Source: Staphylococcus phage Twort
Length of the DNA stretch: 64,000 bases
Reading direction: 5' to 3' (one strand)
Sequence record: NC_007021.1
Below the pieces are notes generated by a model. It had not been told where the DNA came from. It made no database searches and saw only the letters and a list, made by a program, of their open reading frames with translations. This document shows, one piece after another, positions 1,388 to 52,286 of this stretch. Each line of letters opens with the position of its first letter. The stretch's first letter is position 1. The translations under genes were made by a program, and so were the position numbers.

Positions 1388-4300
1388 GTGAGTACATTTT
1401 TAAAAAATCTACACCCATTGTTAAAACGACAAAAAGATAAACGTGATAACCAAGACCCTAACTATGCTTTGATTAAAGTTCTTAATGAGGAAATGAACCA
1501 AATAGAACAAGATGCTATTAAAAGTAAATTACAATCGTCATTGAAAACAGCTACTGGGGCATACCTTAATAAGTTTGGTGATTGGTTTGGTGTATATAGA
1601 AAATCTAATGAATCTGATGATATATATCGTGACAGAATTATAGAGTATGTTCTACTAAAACGAGGAACGAATAATTCTATTGTAAAAGCTATTAAAGATT
1701 ACTTAGAAAAAGAAGATGCTTATGTATCCGTGTATGAACCGTATAAAAATATTTTTTATACTAATAAATCTCATTTAAATGGGGATGACCATTTAATGGG
1801 ATATTACTATAGGTTTGCTGTTATTAATATTAAGATAGGTAGTTATTTCCCTACAGAAATCTTAGACATAGTAAACAAGTTTAAACCCGCAGGGGTTAAA
1901 GTATATCTAACGTATGAAGGTTGGTACACTAACACAGGTGGGTATGTAACTAAAATGTTAGAAGGACTACCTAAGATAACTAACTATACACTGTTAGATA
2001 GACTAAGTGGTTTTGGTGATACTTTTTATGGTCACTTAAACTTATCTGAGAGAAAAGAGTCTTTTGATAATTCTACATCTTTATTTAACGTAAATAGAAG
2101 TAAGACTAATAGTAAAGATGTTTTGTCTGGCTCAAGTTCTTCAGGACGTACATTTTATAATTATGCCTATTATTCTACCCATGAGTATACTTTAGAAGAC
2201 AATAGTTCTGTAACTTCTAGGGATATGTATAGTGCTAAAGAGATGCCTTTAGAGTATTATGCATATTCTAAAGAACTCGATAACTACATTGTTAGCTACA
2301 CTTTACCTAAGACACAAAGTGTTAAGTTTATACACAATAACTTTAACTTAGAAGAATACTTCTTAAAGTATAACCCTGAAATAGTAACTGGAGATAAAAA
2401 GAAAAACTTTGTTGATTTTATAGGAGAAGCAAGGTATGATTATTACATAAGTGCCTTAGTACCTCCAGAAGAGAATATTATAGTAGACCTTCAAATTTTT
2501 GACTTTGTAACAAAAACATGGAACACTATAAAAACTACCAAAGTAGGTAGTAAAGAAGTTAATGTTGGAGGTTCTATTGGATATTTAACTGATTATATCA
2601 ACAGTAGAATGGTTATTTTTACAAGACTACGTATCAGAGAGTATAAAGAAGTGGATATAAAGGTTAACTATATAGATATATCTTTCAGCAACACACAAAA
2701 AGATAAATACACGAACAATAGATTTTTACCTAATATTTATAGAGTACTGTCCTCTTCATCTAGTTATGATTATGTAGACTTAACAAAAATATCATTGCCT
2801 ACTAATGGTGACATAATTAGTAAACGTGCATATTATCCTTCTCAATTTATTAGAATAGGTGATGAATACAGTAATTCTATTAATAGAAATTTACTCAATA
2901 ATACTATTATACCTAAAGGGACATATACTAGTGAGTCTAGCTCTATTATTACTAAGCAAGATAATGAGTTAAAGATAGAGACTGGTGAAAATCAAACAAA
3001 AACTGATGTAAAATTAAGTAGTAACTTCGTGCTAACATCAGGAAGTACATATACTTTATCTTTTATGTATAAGTCAGATGATAATACTAAACCTTTAGAT
3101 TACTCATTTTTACAAGATACTTCAGGTAAAAAAGTTCCTGTAGTATTTGACAGTATTAACCAGACATCATCGTATACAAAAGTCATAAAAACTTTTACTC
3201 TTGATGGCTCTTCTGATAACTATAGTCTTATTATAGGTAAAAACAGTACCGATACTTTTTATATAAAAGAGTTTAAACTAGAGAGAGGAAGTAACGCAAC
3301 ACCATTTCAACCTAACCCATCTGATTTATATAGTGTAGACCCTAATAATTCTGTTACTATAGATTTATTTAAGGAAGATAATACACCAATAGAAAGTGTA
3401 GTACATAGGGAAAAATCCAAAAACTTACTCCAAAGTTATAAAGGGTCAATAGATATACATAGTAGTATTACTAACACAGAAATGTTCACAACCTCAGGTT
3501 TTGCTCACACATTATATTCCGCAAAATATTTATCTAGTATTTTAGAAGAAGGAAAAAAATATACTATCCACTTTGAACTTGAAATTATAGATACTGTAGA
3601 TAGTTCTTTTAAAACTTTTTCCGATTCTCACGGTATATGGTTATATAGTGCAACTACCCCTAAGGATAATATTAATATGCAAGAGAATATAATTCGAACT
3701 TCACCTAGAAAATTAGTGAAAACTGTTACTTTTACCGCACCTAAGATTACAGACCATAGGCTGTTAGTTTATTCAGGAAGATACACTACTGATGGTACCG
3801 CATACACACAACCAGTTAAACACAATACTATAAAGATTACAAATTTTATTTTACAAGAAGAGAAAACGTATAGTGGATACTCTAAGTCTAGTTATGACGA
3901 GATAACTTTCCTAGATAAGACAGTTAAAGTTAATGGTGCTAGAACGGACATAGGAAAAATCAATGTCAATTCAATAGATAATTTACCTAAAGCACGCTTA
4001 TTATATAGTACATATGGTAGTAGTTATGATGTAATTAAGAATATTAGTTTAACCCAAGGAACTAATACTATACTTAATAAATACATTGACCTTTACGGAT
4101 TAAATACTATAGACTACTCTGATATAAATCCTATGTCCGATATTGTATTACAGTCTATATGGGACATACCTATAAATAAGATTACTTCTAAAACAGGTAA
4201 ATTAGACGGATTGTACAAAGGATTCTTTAATGCAGGTTGGCAACACCTTGTAAATAATAATGAAGAAGTATATACTTTTGATACACTAACGGTTCTTAAA

Positions 4301-4519
4301 GACACTGAAGGTGGAGTATTTGATAACTCTACAGGTGATATTGTTAAAATGACCACAACGCCTGTTACTAGATTAACATCTATAAGTACATACTCTTACA
4401 GTAATTATACTTACCAGGAGCCATTATTACTAGATTCTAGTATACCACTTTCTGATAGTACAAGAACTCTAAATACCGAATCATATGAAAAAGATGTATC
4501 ATTCCTAAAAATACTGTAA
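1388..4519 (+). CDS. large baseplate/tail-fibre structural protein (1043 aa)
   Basis: GTG start after a GGAGGGG RBS. S/T/N/Y-rich beta-type composition. Position after gpJ matches the gpI/tail-fibre slot. Confidence 0.45.
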   Translation: MSTFLKNLHPLLKRQKDKRDNQDPNYALIKVLNEEMNQIEQDAIKSKLQSSLKTATGAYLNKFGDWFGVYRKSNESDDIYRDRIIEYVLLKRGTNNSIVKAIKDYLEKEDAYVSVYEPYKNIFYTNKSHLNGDDHLMGYYYRFAVINIKIGSYFPTEILDIVNKFKPAGVKVYLTYEGWYTNTGGYVTKMLEGLPKITNYTLLDRLSGFGDTFYGHLNLSERKESFDNSTSLFNVNRSKTNSKDVLSGSSSSGRTFYNYAYYSTHEYTLEDNSSVTSRDMYSAKEMPLEYYAYSKELDNYIVSYTLPKTQSVKFIHNNFNLEEYFLKYNPEIVTGDKKKNFVDFIGEARYDYYISALVPPEENIIVDLQIFDFVTKTWNTIKTTKVGSKEVNVGGSIGYLTDYINSRMVIFTRLRIREYKEVDIKVNYIDISFSNTQKDKYTNNRFLPNIYRVLSSSSSYDYVDLTKISLPTNGDIISKRAYYPSQFIRIGDEYSNSINRNLLNNTIIPKGTYTSESSSIITKQDNELKIETGENQTKTDVKLSSNFVLTSGSTYTLSFMYKSDDNTKPLDYSFLQDTSGKKVPVVFDSINQTSSYTKVIKTFTLDGSSDNYSLIIGKNSTDTFYIKEFKLERGSNATPFQPNPSDLYSVDPNNSVTIDLFKEDNTPIESVVHREKSKNLLQSYKGSIDIHSSITNTEMFTTSGFAHTLYSAKYLSSILEEGKKYTIHFELEIIDTVDSSFKTFSDSHGIWLYSATTPKDNINMQENIIRTSPRKLVKTVTFTAPKITDHRLLVYSGRYTTDGTAYTQPVKHNTIKITNFILQEEKTYSGYSKSSYDEITFLDKTVKVNGARTDIGKINVNSIDNLPKARLLYSTYGSSYDVIKNISLTQGTNTILNKYIDLYGLNTIDYSDINPMSDIVLQSIWDIPINKITSKTGKLDGLYKGFFNAGWQHLVNNNEEVYTFDTLTVLKDTEGGVFDNSTGDIVKMTTTPVTRLTSISTYSYSNYTYQEPLLLDSSIPLSDSTRTLNTESYEKDVSFLKIL

Positions 4520-4603: not shown

Positions 4604-5113
4604 ATGGCTATTGCGACAATAAATTCACATGTAGAACTAGCTAAATTTTATGCTAGTAAAGACTTTCACTTAGTATTAGGTAAAACATCACCGTGGTCTA
4701 ACGAACAGAGCCCACCACAACCTAAAGATACTACAACAACATTAGATGAGGTTATTGGTTATAAGAAAGCTAAAAAAGTAGCTTTAGTTAGACCCGCACA
4801 ACCAACTACAGATGACAGTAAAACTAAAATTCAGTATGGTAATAGAGAATGGGTAGAAGTATCCCCAGAAAATGCTATTAAAGAAGGAGCTAAATATGTT
4901 TACCTTCAAGCAGAGGTAGTTGGAGAGGAATTACCATTAGGAACATACAGACAAGTAGGATTTACTATGGGATTAAAATCTTCTACTGATAAACTAAACT
5001 TACTACCAAGTGAAGTACAAGATGCAGGAACATTAATTTTTTATGATAATAAACAATTCCAGAACCGAGTAGCTCAAACAACAGTTACTGAGTCATTTAT
5101 TATGGAATTATAA
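4604..5113 (+). CDS. hypothetical structural protein
   Basis: 169-aa ORF with AAAGGAG RBS, within the tail module. Confidence 0.4.
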
Positions 5114-24473: not shown

Positions 24474-25193
24474 ATGGCAACTTATGGTAAGTGGATTGAC
24501 CTTAATAATGAGGTCACTCAACTAGACGAAAATGGAAAAAATAAACTCTATAAGGACAAAGAAGCCTTAGAAGAGTACTCAAAATATATTGAAAAGAATA
24601 CACGTAATTTTGATAATGAAGTAGAGCGTGTACGTACCTTAACTAAAGAGGGTACTTATGATAAGGTGTTTGATAGTATTCCTGATACTATTATTGAAGA
24701 AATGACAAAGTTAGCTTATAGTTTTAACTTTCAATTTCAGAGCTTTATGGCATGTCAAAAGTTCTATGAATCATATGCTGTGACACAGTATGATAAAGAT
24801 GATAATCCTATTTTTGTAGAAGATTATGAACAACATAATGTACGTGTTGCGCTTTATTTATTTCAAGACGATTATGTTAAAGCTAGAGAAATGTTAATTC
24901 AATTAATGGAACAGACATTACAGCCCGCTACACCAGTATATCTTAACTCAGGGTTAGGTAAACGTGGTGAATTGTCATCTTGTTATTTATTTATTGTAGA
25001 TGATACTATCGAATCTATTAACTTTATTACAGACTCCGTACGACAAGCATCTAAAAATGCAGGAGGTTGTGCAGTAGACTTAACAAGATTACGCCCTAGA
25101 GGAACAGAGGTTAATGGTGTTCCTAATGCTAGTAAGGGTGTAATACCATTTGCAAAAAATATCGAGCAGAGCGTATCATATTTCAACCAGGGT
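24474..25193 (+). CDS. nrdE: ribonucleotide reductase class Ib alpha subunit NrdE, exon 1
   Basis: N-terminal NrdE sequence up to ...SYFNQG. The ORF then runs into an intron; the last codon GGT ends with U (G.U splice site). Confidence 0.75.
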
Positions 25194-25622
25194 AAACAAT
25201 TCTGCCCCCTATATTAGTAATAGTGTAGGTTAAAAAACTTCCTTAATTCATGGGAAATCTCCTTGACTTTTATTATAAATTTTGGTATAGTAAAATGAGA
25301 AGGAGATAATCATGAGCAAGATAACCAATAGCAAAGAAACCCAAAAAAGTACCTAACGCTACTAAAAGTATTTACCACCATATAAAAAGTAAAAGAAGAT
25401 GGAAGTCATTAAATCACTTAATGAATTGGTAATTATCTTGTGCAACGACTAGAGAAAAGATAGTTTATTGTTACAGGCAGTAAATGAAGACTGAGTATCG
25501 TACACTCAAGTGAGTGGAAACAGGAAGTATCCTAGAGTAACGACTAGGATAATGATATAGTCTGAACATTGTAGGTGACTACAAGAAGGTAAGGAGTAAC
25601 GAACCTTATCGTAACATAATTG
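25194..25622 (+). mobile_element. group I intron 1 in nrdE (no ORF)
   Basis: Interrupts the conserved NQxGxRxGA motif. 3' core AAGGTAAGGAGTAACGAACCTTATCGTAACATAATYG is shared with intron 2. Ends with G. Boundaries are +/-3 nt. Confidence 0.65.
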
Positions 25623-26648
25623 GGAAAACGTGAAGGCTCTGCAGTATGTTATTTAAATATATTCCACCCAGATATTCATGAATTTTTAAGTTCTAAAAAA
25701 ATTAATGCTAGTGATAAAGTAAGATTAGACACATTATCTATTGGTGTAACAATACCAAATAAGTTTATGGAATTACTTAAAGAAGATAAATACTACTATA
25801 CATTTAATGTATATGATGTTAAACAAAAATATGGGTTTACATTAAATGAAATAAACATGTCCGAGTATTATGATATATTTGTGAATGATGATGATATTAG
25901 AAAAGAAAAATATTATACAAGAGATATAATGACTGACATTGCAAGAACACAACTAGAGTCAGGATACCCTTATGTTTTCTACATTGATAACGCAAATGAC
26001 AATCACCCTTTGAAGAAACTAGGTAAAGTTCAAATGTCTAATTTATGCTGTGAGGTGACACAGCTACAAGAAGTATCCGACATATTCCCATATTTACAAT
26101 CACATAATGATACTATTGGGAATGATGTTGTGTGTACGTTAGGTTCATTAAATTTAGTGAATGTTGTAGAAAAAGGATTGCTTAAAGAATCCGTAGATAG
26201 TGGTATTCGTTCGTTATCTAAAGTAACGGATTTAATGAACGTTCCATTTTTACCAAGTGTTCAGAAGGCAAACGATGAGCTACGAGCTATAGGTCTTGGA
26301 GCAATGAACTGGCATGGACTTCTAGCAAAGAATATGCTTAGTTATGGTTCTAGGGAATCTCTAGACATTGCTAATAGTTTATTTAGTGCTATTAGATACT
26401 ACTCTATTAAGTCTAGTATGGAACTAGCTAAAGAAACTGGTAAAGTTTTTAAAGGTTTTAAAGAATCAGAATACTATACTGGAGAAGTGTTTAGTTCATA
26501 TATTCAAAAGTCACATGAACCTAGAACTAAAAAAGCTAAAAAAGTACTAGAAAAGGTATATATCCCTACGGAAGAAGACTGGAACTCTTTAAGCAAAGAT
26601 GTAAAAGAGTATGGTATGTACAACGGATACTTAAATAATCTTGCACCT
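25623..26648 (+). CDS. nrdE: NrdE exon 2
   Basis: GKREGSAVCYLNIFHPDIHEFL and NLCCEV active-site region. Ends ...NLAP (cct, U) before intron 2. Confidence 0.75.
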
Positions 26649-27735
26649 TATATATTAGGGCGTGTATAAGAATACATGATAACTCTTTCGAATTGCTGGA
26701 ACACCCTTAGAGCCTAATAAACTACAACGTAACTAGAAATGGTAAGCGTGAATGTTTAAAAATTATTGGGATTGGGCAATCAGCATCTAAGATTCTAAAT
26801 AATTATAATTAAAATAAAGTGTAACAAAGGAAGATATATTATAGAGGAGTTATGGAAAGAAATACCTGGGTTTAATTCATACATGATTAGTAATAAAGGT
26901 CAGGTTTACTCAAGAAAAAGAAATAAGATACTAGCTTTACGAACAGATAAAAATGGGTATAAAAGAATATCTATTTTTAACAATGAAGGTAAAAGAATTC
27001 TATTAGGAGTTCATAAGTTAGTTCTCTTAGGTTTTAAAGGTATTAATACTGAAAAGCCTATACCTCACCATAAGAATAATATTAAAGATGATAACAGATT
27101 AGAAAATTTGGAATGGGTTACAGTTAGTGAAAATACCAAGCATGCATATGATATAGGGGCTTTAAAATCACCTAGGAGAGTTACATGTACTCTTTATTAT
27201 AAAGGAGAACCTTTATCATGCTATGACTCGTTGTTTGACTTAGCTAAGGCTTTAAAAGTAAGTAGAAGTGTAATAGAGAGTCCTAGAAATGGTTTGGTGT
27301 TATCTACTTTTGAAGTAAAAAGAGAACCTACAATACAAGGACTACCTTTAAATAAAGAGATATTTGAGCATAGTTTAATTAAGGGCTTGGGTAATCCTCC
27401 TTTAAAAGTGTATAATGAAGATGAAACCTACTACTTTTTAACTTTAATGGACATAAGTAAGTACTTTAATGAATCATACTCTAAAGTACAACGAGGATAT
27501 TATAAAGGTAAGTGGAAAAGTTATATTATAGAACATATTGATTTTTATGAGTATTACAAACAAACACATTAATTATAATTACAAGAATAAAGTTCAACGA
27601 CTATCCCGTTGCTGGGAGTACACTCAAGTGAGTGGAAGTGGAAGAGGTCTTACTTAAGTAAGATGTGATATAGTCTGGACGTATATGGAAACATATAGAA
27701 GGTAAGGAGTAACGAACCTTATCGTAACATAATCG
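26649..27735 (+). mobile_element. group I intron 2 in nrdE carrying an HNH homing endonuclease ORF
   Basis: Splits the conserved APTxSIS motif (exon 2 ...NLAP | TQSISYV exon 3). The conserved intron 3' core is repeated at 25575-25622 and 27690-27735. Confidence 0.7.
26883..27572 (+). CDS. intron-encoded HNH homing endonuclease
   Basis: HNH motif HHKNNIKDDNRLENLEWVTVSENTKHA. Resembles the I-HmuI/I-BasI class of Bacillus phage intron endonucleases (established knowledge). Confidence 0.75.
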   Translation: MISNKGQVYSRKRNKILALRTDKNGYKRISIFNNEGKRILLGVHKLVLLGFKGINTEKPIPHHKNNIKDDNRLENLEWVTVSENTKHAYDIGALKSPRRVTCTLYYKGEPLSCYDSLFDLAKALKVSRSVIESPRNGLVLSTFEVKREPTIQGLPLNKEIFEHSLIKGLGNPPLKVYNEDETYYFLTLMDISKYFNESYSKVQRGYYKGKWKSYIIEHIDFYEYYKQTH

Positions 27736-48873: not shown

Positions 48874-49116
48874 TTGATGATGAATTTAAAAATATTTTAT
48901 GAAGAGGTTAAACAATTAGAAAATAGAAAGATTGCCAAGGAGCAGGTATTACTAGAATCAATGAAAACATTTAGTAAGTTAAGAGGAACTTTAACAAATA
49001 GTCAATTAAGTCTTGACATTCTTTTAAATTATGGTATAGTTGAATATATCAAATATAAAAGGTATTTAGGAAGATTACAAAATTGTGTAGTAAAAGCATA
49101 TAAGGAGGAGTATTAA
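48874..49116 (+). CDS. hypothetical protein
   Basis: 80-aa ORF with AGGAGGGA RBS. Confidence 0.4.
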   Translation: MMMNLKIFYEEVKQLENRKIAKEQVLLESMKTFSKLRGTLTNSQLSLDILLNYGIVEYIKYKRYLGRLQNCVVKAYKEEY

Positions 49117-49340
49117 TGTTATTTTTTAAAGAAAAGTTTTATAATGAATTAAGTTATTATAGAGGTGGACACAAGGATTTAGAAAGTATGTTTGAGTTAG
49201 CGTTAGAGTATATTGAGAAATTAGAAGAAGAAGATGAACAGCAGGTAACTGATTATGAGAACGCTATGGAAGAAGAATTAAGGGATGCTGTTGATGTAAT
49301 TGAGAGTCAGTTAGAAATTATTAAGGATATAGTTCGATGA
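49116..49340 (+). CDS. hypothetical acidic protein
   Basis: 74-aa ORF. Confidence 0.4.
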   Translation: MLFFKEKFYNELSYYRGGHKDLESMFELALEYIEKLEEEDEQQVTDYENAMEEELRDAVDVIESQLEIIKDIVR

Positions 49341-49497
49341 GTGGGTTTAATGATTTTCTTAAACAAGAATCTAAAAGGGTTAATAAACCACTCAAGAAAC
49401 AGAGAAAGAAGAAAGAAACACCTATAGAAGAAGTGCAAGAAAAGTTAGCTAAAATAAGAAGTAAATCAAAGTATATGGATTTAGGTAGGAGATATAA

Positions 49498-49704
49498 ATG
49501 AAAACCTATACATGCAATAGGGTATCGGCTAGTGTTGAAGAACTTAAACAGTACAAAGATTTCAGGTTATTATTCGGGTTTGATGATGTTGTATTATATT
49601 TACTTAGTGAGCAAGATGAAGCAAAAACATTTAAAATGGAAAAGAAAGAATTAGAAAAAATAGAAAAGAAATATAGTAATGAACCTTTCTTTTCTTACTT
49701 ATAG
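49498..49704 (+). CDS. hypothetical protein
   Basis: 68-aa ORF. Confidence 0.35.
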   Translation: MKTYTCNRVSASVEELKQYKDFRLLFGFDDVVLYLLSEQDEAKTFKMEKKELEKIEKKYSNEPFFSYL

Positions 49705-49800
49705 GAGGGTATTGTAACAGGTAGTAATAATTTATAAAAACTTATAAATTTATTTGCATTTTTGGATAAAGTATGCTATGTTATATTTAGAGGTGATAAT

Positions 49801-49881
49801 ATGGCATATATGTCTATAGGAAAATTTAGTAAAGAGATAGGTGTTACACTCAAACATTACGTAATTGGCAGGGTGAATTAA
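49801..49881 (+). pseudogene. truncated IS607-type tnpA remnant (MerR-like HTH only)
   Basis: MAYMSIGKFSKEIGVTLKHY... resembles the N-terminal HTH of IS607-family serine-recombinase TnpA (SIxExAKxxGVxxxTLRRW). A second frame continues TLRNWQGEL, then stops. No catalytic domain. Confidence 0.4.
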
Positions 49882-49884
49882 CTA

Positions 49885-50994
49885 ATGATAACGAAAAAAG
49901 TTAGACTTAAACCTACTAAACAACAGGAGTTAAAATTACGTAAATCAGCAGATATAGCACGATTTATATATAATTGGACTTTAGCAAAACAACAAGAAAA
50001 TTATAAACAAGGCAATAAATTTATACAAGATTCTGTGTTAAGAAAAGAAATAACACAATTAAAGAAAACTGAAGAGTTTAGATGGTTAAATGAAGTAAGT
50101 AATAATATTCCTAAGCAAGCAGTTAAAGATGCTTGTAATGCTTACAAAAGATTTTTTAAAAAACAATCTGGTTTTCCTAAATTTAAATCTAAAAAGAAAA
50201 CAAGACCTAGTTTCTATAATGATACACAAAAACTAAAAGTAAAAGAAAAATCAGTATTATTAGAAAAAGTGGGTTGGGTTAGAACATCTGAACAATTACC
50301 TGTAGGTACTAAGTACTACAATCCTAGAATCACTTTTGATGGTAAATATTGGTATATAAGTGTTTCTATTGAAGAAGAAAATAAATATGAAGAACTAACA
50401 AACGAATCTTTAGGTATTGATTTAGGAATAAAAGAATTAGCCGTATGCTCTGATGGAAGTATTTATGAAAATATTAACAAAACAATAAGAGTTAAAAAAC
50501 TAGAAAAACGATTACGTAGATTGCAACGTAAGGTATCTCGTAAATACCAAAATAATAAAGAAGGGAGTACCTTTGTCAAAACTTGCAATATTATAAAACT
50601 TGAAAAACAAATTAAACTCTTACAACGAAGATTGTCTAACATTCGTAAAAACTATTTACATCAAACAACAACTTCTATAGTGAAAACCAAACCTAGAAGA
50701 ATTGTTATAGAAGATTTGAATGTAAGTGGTATGATGAAGAATAGACACTTAGCTAAAGCAATACAAAAACAAGGATTCTATGAGTTCCGTAAACAACTAG
50801 AATATAAGTGTGGAAGAAAAGGTATAGAACTTGTTATTGCAGATAGATTCTTTCCTTCTAGTAAAACATGCTCTAATTGTGGTAACATCCACAAAAACTT
50901 AAAACTATCAGATAGAATATTTAAGTGTGACTGTGGTTTTAGTATTGATAGAGACCTTAATGCTAGTATTAATTTAGCTAATTATAATATTTAG
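49885..50994 (+). CDS. tnpB: TnpB (IS200/IS605-IS607 family OrfB, RuvC-like with C-terminal zinc finger)
   Basis: C-terminal SKTCSNCGNIHKNLKLSDRIFKCDCGFSIDRDLNASINL, typical TnpB CxxC...CxxC plus the RuvC-III motif DxNA(A/S)xNI. The N-terminus MITKKVRLKPTKQQ is typical. Confidence 0.8.
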   Translation: MITKKVRLKPTKQQELKLRKSADIARFIYNWTLAKQQENYKQGNKFIQDSVLRKEITQLKKTEEFRWLNEVSNNIPKQAVKDACNAYKRFFKKQSGFPKFKSKKKTRPSFYNDTQKLKVKEKSVLLEKVGWVRTSEQLPVGTKYYNPRITFDGKYWYISVSIEEENKYEELTNESLGIDLGIKELAVCSDGSIYENINKTIRVKKLEKRLRRLQRKVSRKYQNNKEGSTFVKTCNIIKLEKQIKLLQRRLSNIRKNYLHQTTTSIVKTKPRRIVIEDLNVSGMMKNRHLAKAIQKQGFYEFRKQLEYKCGRKGIELVIADRFFPSSKTCSNCGNIHKNLKLSDRIFKCDCGFSIDRDLNASINLANYNI

Positions 50995-51171
50995 ATTATC
51001 ACTAATAAGATACTAAATATATGTACCATTCGTTGTATGGGAATTTAAGCCTTTGGAGTATCATACAAACTTGAGTAGAGTAAATGAATATAGTAATTTA
51101 CTCAAAAGGGGATACGTTGAAAAAGGAATATAATTTATAAAGTTTTATAAATTTTTGACAACGGGAATCAT

Positions 51172-51372
51172 ATGTTAACTATTCTAGTACTCATTTGGGT
51201 ATTACTATTTTTAACTGTTTTATTTAATATTAAAGTAGGGAATATTTTTATTCTAGGTGATTATGTAGAATTTAAAGACAAATTTGTGGCAGTATCGTTC
51301 TTATTATTTTTATTGCTGTCTATGTTAATTGGTTTAATAATTATTCTTAAAGGAGTGTATGGACAATGGTAA
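51172..51372 (+). CDS. small membrane protein (2 TM)
   Basis: 66 aa, two hydrophobic helices. Confidence 0.4.
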   Translation: MLTILVLIWVLLFLTVLFNIKVGNIFILGDYVEFKDKFVAVSFLLFLLLSMLIGLIIILKGVYGQW

Positions 51373-51644
51373 AAGGAAACATTAAAGAACTTTTAAATTG
51401 TATTTGTGGTTGTGTAGATTCATTTATGGATGAAGGTAAAAGTTATGTAGTGTATTCAGACAAAAAAGTATTTGTTAAGTATAAAGGTGTTGTTATTGCA
51501 AGTATTGAAGATGATGTTGTTCATAGTAATGTATACCAACTTAAGACTGGTACTATAGAAAAACAAACCTTATATACTTTAGTTAAAGCACTTCAGTATT
51601 TAGTTAGTCTGGAGTATAGAGAACGAGAAGATATAAATATTTAA
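51366..51644 (+). CDS. hypothetical protein
   Basis: 92-aa ORF. Confidence 0.4.
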   Translation: MVKGNIKELLNCICGCVDSFMDEGKSYVVYSDKKVFVKYKGVVIASIEDDVVHSNVYQLKTGTIEKQTLYTLVKALQYLVSLEYREREDINI

Positions 51645-51653
51645 AAAAGTTTA

Positions 51654-51684
51654 GGGAATCTGTTGACATTCAGATTCCCTTTTG
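51654..51684 (+). terminator. terminator hairpin GGGAATCTG-ttgacatt-CAGATTCCC followed by TTTT, with a promoter -35 in the loop
   Basis: Sequence inspection. Confidence 0.6.
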
Positions 51685-51691
51685 TTATACT
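51663..51691 (+). promoter_or_regulatory. promoter TTGACATTC-17-TGnTATACT embedded in a terminator hairpin
   Basis: TTGACA at 51663-51668, TATACT at 51686-51691. Confidence 0.55.
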
Positions 51692-51722
51692 CTAATTAAG
51701 ATAAGAAAAGGAGATGTTTCAT

Positions 51723-52286
51723 ATGAAAAAATTATTTATGGTAGGAAGTTTAGGTCTGATGTTATTCGTAGGAGGTTGTGGTACTACAGAGCATAAAGAA
51801 GGTTCTCTGGAATCTAACACTAATGAAGTTGTAACAACAGAACAAAGTACAACACAAGAGTATAATGGAAGTAGTGAAGGTGGAAACGGAAACCCTAATG
51901 CAAATGTAACAACTGACCCAAGTGAAAAATATTTATCTGACTTTTTTGAGTCTAGGGCACAAGGAACAATATTAGATAGATTAGACCGCTATGCAGAATT
52001 AGTAGGTAAAATTAATAACCCAGAGGAAAACGTAGAAGCAGAAACATTACAATATGCTATTAAGAATATGGACACTTATGTAGAAGAGTTACCTGTTGAA
52101 ACAGAAGACGATGCTAAGGCACAAGAACAACTAAGACAAATGGTTCAATACTATAAGCAAGCAAATGAAAACTTTAAAGAATACCAAGATACTGGTGATA
52201 TAAATAAACTAAATAAAGGTAACGAAATGTATAATGAAGGATATACTTTAGAAGTAGAAGTAAAAAGAGGGACTAACTTAATTTAG
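51723..52286 (+). CDS. lipoprotein
   Basis: MKKLFMVGSLGLMLFVGGCG is a signal peptide plus lipobox (VGGC). RBS AAGGAG lies 10 nt upstream of the ATG at 51723. Confidence 0.6.
   Translation: MKKLFMVGSLGLMLFVGGCGTTEHKEGSLESNTNEVVTTEQSTTQEYNGSSEGGNGNPNANVTTDPSEKYLSDFFESRAQGTILDRLDRYAELVGKINNPEENVEAETLQYAIKNMDTYVEELPVETEDDAKAQEQLRQMVQYYKQANENFKEYQDTGDINKLNKGNEMYNEGYTLEVEVKRGTNLI

Follow-up and report, generated by a model that had tools for sequence, protein, structure and literature searches.

Staphylococcus phage Twort, the type virulent myovirus of the Twortvirinae, carries an insertion sequence (IS) of the IS607 family in which the gene of the transposase, tnpA, has been reduced to a remnant and the RNA-guided nuclease gene tnpB is retained together with a predicted guide RNA. 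The DNA analyzed (hereafter the window) comprises 64,000 nucleotides of record NC_007021.1, and the element lies on its plus strand. It is best explained, and in our view probably so, as a non-autonomous, selfish IS607 element that is maintained by TnpB-driven homing. Purifying selection on tnpB after the loss of tnpA and covariation in the guide RNA show, at the level of the aligned sequences, that the nuclease module is still maintained. An initial annotation, made from the letters of the window, had placed the feature at 49801-51110. This span does hold the tnpA remnant, tnpB and a 3' hairpin, but the mobile element is larger (about 49709-51164). Its main parts, including the open reading frames (ORFs), are the following:

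49709-51164, plus strand: entire non-autonomous element of the IS607 family, 1,456 bp, with about 2 nt of uncertainty at its left boundary (shared G run)
49801-49881, plus strand: tnpA remnant ORF, 26 aa, N-terminal half of the MerR-like helix-turn-helix (HTH) of an IS607 serine recombinase
49885-50994, plus strand: tnpB, 369-aa predicted RNA-guided endonuclease (GenBank YP_238637.1), assigned with the Pfam set and the 8iaz alignment

The TnpB sequence is identical to YP_238637.1/AAX92317.1 ('mobile element protein/transposase', Staphylococcus phage Twort), the product of a gene that has been annotated as 'transposase' since 2005. Three Pfam domains are found above their cut-offs in the ORF at 49885-50994, namely PF12323 (HTH_OrfB_IS605, 59 bits), PF01385 (OrfB_IS605, 72 bits) and PF07282 (Cas12f1-like_TNB, 82 bits). 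The protein aligns end to end (E = 8e-88) with the IS607 TnpB of ISFba1 from Firmicutes bacterium AM43-11BH (PDB 8iaz). In this alignment, the RuvC triad D194/E290/D371 of ISFba1 is matched by D179/E276/D357 of Twort TnpB, all of them intact; the third position is an Ala in the 8iaz chain, consistent with a D371A construct. The four cysteines of the zinc finger (CxxC...CxC: C329, C332, C348 and C350) are present as well. The domains, triad and cysteines thus bear out the earlier description of a full-length TnpB with RuvC-like and zinc-finger parts, which lies, as was also proposed, beside a decayed IS607-type tnpA in a lytic phage, here Twort. A TldR-like dead nuclease was considered and rejected, since Twort TnpB retains all RuvC catalytic residues.

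Whereas an autonomous IS607 element has an intact serine recombinase, only 26 in-frame codons of it are left in Twort. The remnant begins with MAYMSIGKFSKEIGVT, and its first 16 residues are identical to those of the intact 204-aa TnpA of phage VL10, in which both the MerR HTH and the Resolvase domain are present. Compared to VL10, 505 bp are absent from Twort (VL10 locus L001, 3162-3666), which corresponds to the whole catalytic domain, and 1 nt is deleted in addition. Because of this frameshift, the remaining HTH (TLRNWQGELTNDNEK) is found in another frame; its codons and the last ~10 codons of tnpA run on out of frame to about 49900, into the start of tnpB. The frame-corrected remnant scores 19.3 bits against a MerR cut-off of 28.2, as expected when only half a domain is left. 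The short, HTH-only remnant without catalytic domain that had been read from the sequence is thus confirmed by the comparison with VL10 TnpA. Since the internal deletion removed the catalytic domain, the Twort element cannot move by itself.

Directly downstream of tnpB, the element ends in a structured region that is predicted to form the scaffold of a right-end RNA (reRNA, also called omega-RNA):

50989-51164, plus strand: predicted reRNA/omega-RNA scaffold, ~176 nt, from the consensus fold of homologous regions
50989-50994 paired with 51013-51018, plus strand: 5' stem of the scaffold, overlapping the tnpB stop codon
51026-51029 paired with 51037-51040, plus strand: scaffold hairpin of the consensus fold
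51050-51128, plus strand: RAGATH-18 RNA motif (Rfam RF03064), 67.6 bits, gathering score 44.9, E = 1e-12
51078-51103, plus strand: apical stem-loop of RAGATH-18, GAGTAAAT-N10-ATTTACTC, arms 51078-51085 and 51096-51103; its length differs between copies
51132-51153, plus strand: right-end palindrome AATTTATAAAGTTTTATAAATT, the last scaffold stem-loop as RNA and a probable TnpA site as DNA
51160-51164, plus strand: terminal AACGG, invariant in 20 of 20 relatives from phages and bacteria; it contains the IS607 crossover dinucleotide GG
51165-51184, plus strand: predicted guide segment GAAUCAUAUGUUAACUAUUC in the flanking DNA, its guide role being suggested by ISFba1

The RAGATH-18 match covers the full model (1-71), begins 55 nt past the tnpB stop codon and is the sole Rfam match in the window. 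It gives substance to the possible omega-RNA that had been suspected 3' of tnpB. The hairpin that had been noticed at 51074-51104 is real, but its arms lie at 51078-51085 and 51096-51103, and it is part of RAGATH-18 rather than an isolated structure. The 36-nt flank that follows RAGATH-18 in the scaffold holds the palindrome and the terminal AACGG. To obtain the consensus fold, the region from the tnpB stop to the element end was aligned for 20 homologues, of which 6 are copies from Staphylococcus phages, 5 come from other viral contigs and 9 from bacterial genomes. The fold contains 24 pairs, and compensatory double changes are seen in 22 of them. RAGATH-18 was found just downstream of tnpB in all 20 relatives scanned. 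The predicted guide has no second match in the window.

RAGATH-18 RNAs are found together with IS607 TnpBs (Ren et al., Cell Research 2024, PMC11061315). In the RNA bound by TnpB, RAGATH-18 stands between a 5' flank and a 3' flank, and a variable guide follows (PMC11061315). Such RAGATH-18-derived reRNAs guide IS607 TnpBs experimentally, and cutting occurs next to a target-adjacent motif (TAM) 5'-AGGAG or 5'-GAGGG; 30% of the associated TnpAs are pseudogenes (PMC11061315). As RAGATH-18 is a proven guide scaffold of IS607 TnpBs, the kind of system found in Twort is already known. RAGATH-18 is also annotated beside a related 'transposase' in the GenBank record of phage 110, and a 2025 Silviavirus paper names it among the non-coding RNAs of its phage genomes.

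The ends of the element were defined from the loss of similarity between copies and from an empty site, which together give 49709-51164. The features at and around the ends are:

49703-49709, plus strand: AGGAGGG, Shine-Dalgarno sequence of the interrupted downstream gene and G-rich TAM-like motif abutting the left end
49729-49750, plus strand: left-end palindrome AATTTATAAAAACTTATAAATT, present as a direct repeat at the right end; probable site of TnpA (MerR-HTH)
49754-49782, plus strand: candidate left-end promoter read from the sequence, -35 TTGCAT, 17-nt spacer, extended -10 TGcTATGTT
51172-51372, plus strand: downstream ORF, 66 aa, hydrophobic, split from its own Shine-Dalgarno sequence by the insertion

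On the right side, at least six copies in different contexts lose homology right after ...TTTTTGACAACGG (Twort 51164). On the left side, similarity starts just past the G-rich run, in Twort ...TATAGGAGGG/TATTGTAACAGGTAGTAATAATTTATAA... (the slash marks the junction). Twort itself is outside the phage collection that was searched; its nearest record is that of vB_SpsM-DH2, a phage of S. pseudintermedius with about 84% identity across conserved genes. When the Twort flanks were joined and used as query, they matched DH2 in one collinear piece, and the flanking ORFs are orthologous on both sides. The empty site of DH2 reads ...ACTTATAAAGAGG/TGAATTTATGTTAG..., with AAGAGG at the position of AGGAGGG. 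A search of related phages for an insertion-free locus, as had been advised for defining the ends, was therefore fruitful. The same result contradicts the view that TnpB is 'fixed' in the phage, since DH2, the closest sequenced relative, is empty and copies occur at about ten loci elsewhere.

The element lies between the stop of ORF 49498-49704 (TAG at 49702-49704) and the ATG of ORF 51172-51372, and the insertion point coincides exactly with the GG in the downstream gene's Shine-Dalgarno sequence. IS607 elements end in GG and insert after GG (PMC13565253). Twort follows this rule, with ...GGAGG(G) in the left flank, ...ACAACGG at the right end and no inverted terminal repeats. The AGGAGGG contains both AGGAG and GAGGG, the published TAMs, and their use by Twort TnpB is predicted. 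Instead of an inverted repeat, the two ends share a direct repeat, consisting of the palindrome AATTTATAA-N-TTATAAATT with TTGCAT or TTGACA behind it. Judging from this arrangement, the shared palindrome is probably the TnpA binding site. The promoter-like site at the left end is conserved in other copies (TGtTATAAT in phage 110) and falls below the threshold of the consensus scan, which showed no enrichment of promoters or terminators and found no terminator. An antisense promoter-like site was seen within tnpB (50552-50579, minus strand, TTGACA-16-TATTAT, 11/12 consensus), in a region where such sites are overall not enriched.

In a comparison by hand, the 13 nt after the left-flank GG of Twort match the 13 nt after the right-end GG at 7 of 13 positions. 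The outer 12 nt of the Twort left end were considered as a decayed target-site duplication. This was rejected, as they resemble the outer left ends of other copies, including bacterial ones, and not the right flank. A different situation is seen in VL10, phage 110 and phiSA012, where a stretch of 9-11 nt following the left-flank GG occurs again behind the GG of the right end (GG-ATTGAAGCA, GG-ATGAAAGATAA/ATGAAGAATAA and GG-TGTATATTTAA at the three loci). The repeats are located at 2995-3012 and 4960-4975 of VL10 L001, at about 2890-2905 and 4295-4310 of phage 110 L003, and at 1151-1166 and 2795-2810 of phiSA012 L046. At all three loci the target GG falls within the 3'-terminal part of the upstream ORF, whose last codons and stop are restored by the left copy; the upstream ORF of Twort ends before the GG, and there is no such repeat. 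These duplications run counter to the statement that IS607 makes no target duplication, and they could be a repair scar or a selected variant.

The element is not restricted to Twort. By megablast it was found at 84-93% identity in 61 phage records, all from Staphylococcus Herelleviridae, and by tblastn 50 records contain a TnpB that is 80-90% identical. The copies occupy about ten different loci among Twort-like phages:

VL10: upstream of the portal gene, copy with intact tnpA, about 90% identical to the Twort element
Phage 110 and other Sepunavirus: after the ribonucleotide reductase genes
Romulus, Remus, KSAP7 and EW15: next to tRNA-Ser and holin
Kayvirus phiSA012 and HN01: between tail lysin and GpdP
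RSM-J51Sa and L008 (an IMG/VR contig): another distinct site
PG-2021_10: another distinct site
L007/L051: after a 349-aa ORF that follows a DUF4815-domain gene
L050: between an HU-like gene and DNA polymerase

Wherever tnpB is full-length, the start codon of the next gene is no more than about 15 nt from the right end; a remnant without tnpB inside the VL10 portal gene is left out of this rule. Copies that still have a left end (the Romulus group has lost it) show an RRRGG motif in front of it, and the same start-codon and RRRGG pattern is seen in the bacterial relatives. Judging from these positions, the subfamily targets Shine-Dalgarno sequences, consistent with its TAM. Two candidates were tried and set aside. 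RSM-J51Sa (Baoshanvirus) was considered as an insertion at the same locus as in Twort, given ~30 nt of left-flank similarity, but its flanking genes are dissimilar by tblastx and it was counted as another locus. Possible paralogues were suspected in three ORFs of 349 aa in the window, which proved to be unrelated.

Outside the phages, a search of one genome per GTDB species gave a Bacillaceae protein with 66% identity as the nearest bacterial TnpB and no relative from Staphylococcus. In a set of 5.8 billion proteins, matches of at least 80% identity are all on contigs of 145 kb or less, the named ones being Staphylococcus phages, and contigs of megabase size come up only from about 71% identity downward. 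The outcome of either search depends on exact words in common and on representatives. The element lineage is thus likely absent from Staphylococcus chromosomes and appears to circulate in the virulent Twort-like phages themselves, which appears to be the sole unusual feature of this element.

VL10 holds the element at two sites, the second being the remnant in the portal gene. Here, a 592-bp insertion (L001, 6317-6908) splits the ORF exactly where phage qdsa001 is continuous. At its 5' end, the insert has a weak match to a group I intron (16.6 bits, E = 0.13); it also holds a palindrome like that of the left end, 54 nt of tnpB and a strong RAGATH-18 (63.8 bits), and judging from these parts it looks like a decayed IS607-type IStron in an essential gene. 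For the Twort element itself, an IStron or group I intron was rejected, as no Intron_gpI was found at E <= 1 in 49000-52000 and none at the gathering score in the whole window. Further, unrelated IS607/IS605-type modules occur in Twort-like phages: a second TnpA lineage, 41% identical, in Silviavirus KSAP7, SAPYZU_15, HM01 and others, and TnpBs merely 34-45% identical to that of Twort in qdsa001, SA11, BE05 and others. Several OMEGA-type elements coexist in such Twort-like phage genomes.

Among 50,697 phage records, a cognate full-length TnpA is encoded solely in VL10; the other Staphylococcus phage matches that cover TnpA belong to the different lineage (41% identical). The initial annotation had reasoned that the same TnpB within an intact IS with complete tnpA would point to a trivial recent insertion. 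This applies in part, as the VL10 copy has a complete tnpA and is about 90% identical. Since VL10 carries the same element with a complete tnpA, the Twort copy is a deletion derivative of a mobile IS and not a unique domesticated gene. The tnpA deletion junctions differ by group (Twort/L050; RSM-J51Sa/L008; L007/L051; phage 110/L009; Romulus), the Romulus group additionally lacking the whole left end. As the junctions differ between groups, tnpA was lost independently at least five times. Twort and L050 share the junction of ...AATTG(G/T)CAG with GGTGAATTAA..., although their loci, left-flank motifs and guides differ. On the simplest reading of these sequences, the deleted element would have been mobilized by a TnpA acting in trans; alternatively, a TnpA-independent route may have led to the second locus.

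The ratio of nonsynonymous to synonymous substitutions (dN/dS, Nei-Gojobori) of tnpB is 0.11-0.15 at dS 0.3-0.8 between phage copies, and 0.08-0.22 when Twort is compared with all other copies. For copies that have lost tnpA, the following values were obtained:

L002 versus L008 (same tnpA deletion junction): dS 0.25, dN/dS 0.13
Twort versus L050 (same tnpA deletion junction): dS 0.37, dN/dS 0.12
HTH-only group, tnpB: dS 0.22-0.41, dN/dS 0.08-0.13

Purifying selection within the pairs that share a junction implies that TnpB has been maintained after the loss of TnpA. Between Twort and L050, the reRNA region is identical at 159 of 170 positions (93.5%) and the left end plus remnant at 160 of 177; both are more conserved than the synonymous sites of tnpB. 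The dead tnpA stub (window 49801-49884, L050 about 2915-3000) is ~93% identical even though the adjacent tnpB has a dS of 0.37, and in L050 it forms an in-frame mini-ORF. The stub region may be constrained, e.g. as a leader or in translational coupling for tnpB.

Two other arrangements of the tnpA region were observed. In Kayvirus-type copies, an intact HTH-only ORF of 85-86 aa (MerR-like HTH and short tail) replaces TnpA and overlaps the start of tnpB (L046 1252-1512, L045 1252-1512 and L048 1254-1511, the locus of L045 being different from that of L046/L048). Its dN/dS is about 0.12-0.14 in two of three pairs, from few sites, and the ORF may be a retained regulator. In L008 (~2360-2440), the left-end palindrome and weak promoter are replaced by a promoter of consensus type, TTGACA-17-TATACT, and the tnpA stub, tnpB and reRNA are kept. 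From this exchange, the copy is probably immobilized and better expressed.

The proposed mechanism is derived from what has been demonstrated for ISFba1 and in assays of IS607 TnpB, which promotes element retention and homing (Zedaveinyte et al., PMC10690162). A transcript running through tnpB and beyond the right end would be bound by TnpB and processed to the reRNA. The last 16-20 nt of this reRNA (GAAUCAUAUGUUAACUAUUC) would be copied from the right flank. The complex would then recognize an element-free genome, in which GGAGG/GAGGG directly adjoins the 20-nt target GAATCATATGTTAACTATTC, and cut it; the element-free Twort allele would read ...TTATAGGAGG/GAATCATATG.... Subsequently, the break would be repaired from an element-bearing genome and the element copied in. 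Twort itself would be immune, since its motif and target are held apart by the element. For a lytic phage, substrates in nature would be relatives without the element that co-infect or recombine, or else deletion revertants. The element would thus act like an RNA-guided free-standing homing endonuclease gene. To reach new loci, it would need TnpA in trans from an intact copy such as that of VL10.

A target of this kind is seen for phiSA012: its guide TGTATATTTAATGGTAGTAA with the preceding AGAGG exactly matches the insertion-free allele of Kayvirus Biyabeda-mokiny_1, and the reconstructed phiSA012 empty site is contiguous in 228 Kayvirus records. Several observations weigh against homing as the explanation for Twort. 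No sequenced phage has the exact Twort target, as DH2 differs in the 20-nt site and none was found in IMG/VR. The left-flank motif varies among the copies (AAAGG, AGAGG, GGAGG and GGGGG), and the 3' flank of the scaffold measures 36 nt compared to 64 nt in the characterized ISFba1 reRNA. The single-sequence fold of 50988-51184 is no better than that of shuffles (z = -1.07); single-sequence folding is uninformative in this AT-rich RNA, and the case for the structure therefore rests on covariation. Some copies decay, such as that of EW15, in which TnpB is truncated at 156 aa. Finally, purifying selection would also be expected if TnpB served the phage rather than the element.

Homing between phages ('non-restorative homing') is a published proposal that has been shown for plasmids and not for phages (PMC13565253). 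It is conceivable, and we put it forward tentatively, that this IS607 lineage acts in phages as an RNA-guided homing gene drive: in mixed infections of Twort-like phages, TnpB-reRNA would cut the element-free allele of a competitor, and the element would be copied in without TnpA. Such a drive would explain why TnpA is lost repeatedly and selection nevertheless preserves TnpB and the RNA. The duplications of 9-11 nt at three loci would then be repair scars, or selected variants, of such events.

The initial annotation had proposed a domesticated nuclease, e.g. for homing or competition. Homing does fit, as a selfish function, with the selection on TnpB and the covariation of the RNA, but domestication is not supported over selfish maintenance. 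As a phage tool, TnpB and its reRNA would have been co-opted either to cut or exclude competitors at the homologous site without copying, or to regulate neighboring genes by DNA binding. Although the repeated, independent loss of tnpA with retention of tnpB would suit such a role, the element is patchy across many loci without a fixed conserved position. In L008, the TTGACA-17-TATACT would both immobilize the copy and drive tnpB, and the conserved HTH-only ORF of the Kayvirus copies as well as the restriction of the lineage at 80% identity or more to phage-sized contigs point in the same direction. However, the guide is the adjacent flank, as in any selfish copy, and the RuvC triad is intact, unlike in the nuclease-dead TldR regulators. 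Altogether we consider domestication unlikely, with the proviso that competitor killing and homing are not mutually exclusive and cannot be separated by sequence.

It is rather improbable that the element is an inert relic, i.e. a dead IS in decay that is inactive in Twort and whose TnpB and RNA are intact only because the copy is young. Twort and L050 share their tnpA deletion and have since diverged to a dS of 0.37 at a dN/dS of 0.12, with 93.5% identity in the reRNA, and this pattern is repeated by L002 and L008; the catalytic and zinc-binding residues are all intact and the RNA scaffold covaries. What a relic would account for is the destruction of tnpA by deletion and frameshift, the closest relative DH2 being without the element, the broken (EW15 TnpB) or fragmentary (VL10 portal insert) state of related copies, and a Twort guide without an exact known target in sequenced phages and IMG/VR. 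An addiction module, in which TnpB-reRNA would be toxic to genomes losing the element and restrained by a DNA-binding partner, as proposed for some OMEGA systems (the idea is raised in the review PMC13565253), can practically be dismissed: HTH-only ORFs accompany the Kayvirus copies, but Twort has no intact HTH partner (remnant of 26 aa, frameshifted) and homing already explains the cutting of the empty allele.

The family of IS607 TnpBs with RAGATH-18 reRNA was characterized biochemically in 2024, and the Twort element adds no new kind to it. The comparison of the copies offers a natural test bed: one TnpB lineage, apparently confined to virulent Staphylococcus myoviruses, at about ten Shine-Dalgarno sites, in which the transposase has been lost at least five times while selection still acts on nuclease and guide RNA. 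Should TnpB alone drive the spread between co-infecting phages, the 'non-restorative' RNA-guided homing that has been proposed would have its first natural example in phages. Phage therapy would then be concerned as well, since the carriers (Kayvirus, Silviavirus and Sepunavirus) are often therapeutic candidates and their genomes could interconvert in cocktails.

One further observation was made elsewhere in the window. The large subunit of the ribonucleotide reductase appears to be split at 24474-27572, where ORF 25620-26669 matches positions 74-388 of 523 of Ribonuc_red_lgC and separate ORFs are present on each side. Self-splicing group I introns have been described in the Twort gene for this subunit. 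In the Rfam search, no Intron_gpI reached the gathering score in the window, including the split region 24474-27572.

Among known systems, the IS607 TnpB of ISFba1 (PMC11061315; 8iaz) is the closest counterpart, with the same architecture and catalytic triad over a full-length match. As in Twort, RAGATH-18 directly follows tnpB on its strand and is bordered by conserved sequence on the 5' and 3' sides, an AGGAG/GAGGG motif adjoins the left end, and tnpA pseudogenes are common in the family. The host of ISFba1 is the chromosome of a gut Firmicute, whereas the Twort element resides in a virulent Staphylococcus myovirus. In addition, tnpA is internally deleted in Twort, TnpB has 369 instead of 387 aa, and the 3' flank of the scaffold is 36 instead of 64 nt long. 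The IS607 elements and IStrons of C. botulinum (PMC10690162) resemble Twort in the serine-recombinase IS607 type, the GG crossover, the G-rich TAM, an omega-RNA that overlaps the right end and scarless excision. There, TnpB cuts the empty donor joint to reinstall the element, and TnpA-less copies with intact TnpB exist. Unlike these IStrons, the Twort copy is intergenic and without a group I intron; only the VL10 portal remnant is IStron-like.

The TldR proteins share with Twort TnpB the family, the lack of a transposase, the downstream guide RNA and the phage or prophage context, but Twort TnpB keeps the three RuvC residues and its guide matches its own flank only. Among phage genes, the free-standing homing endonucleases Seg and Mob of T4 ('intronless homing') are comparable: a nuclease gene lies between conserved genes of a lytic phage and is patchy in close relatives, as in Twort. 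For both, spread is expected in co-infection by cutting of the allele that lacks the gene. In contrast to Seg and Mob, target recognition in Twort would use a guide RNA copied from the flank, and the transposon ends would permit the occupation of new loci.

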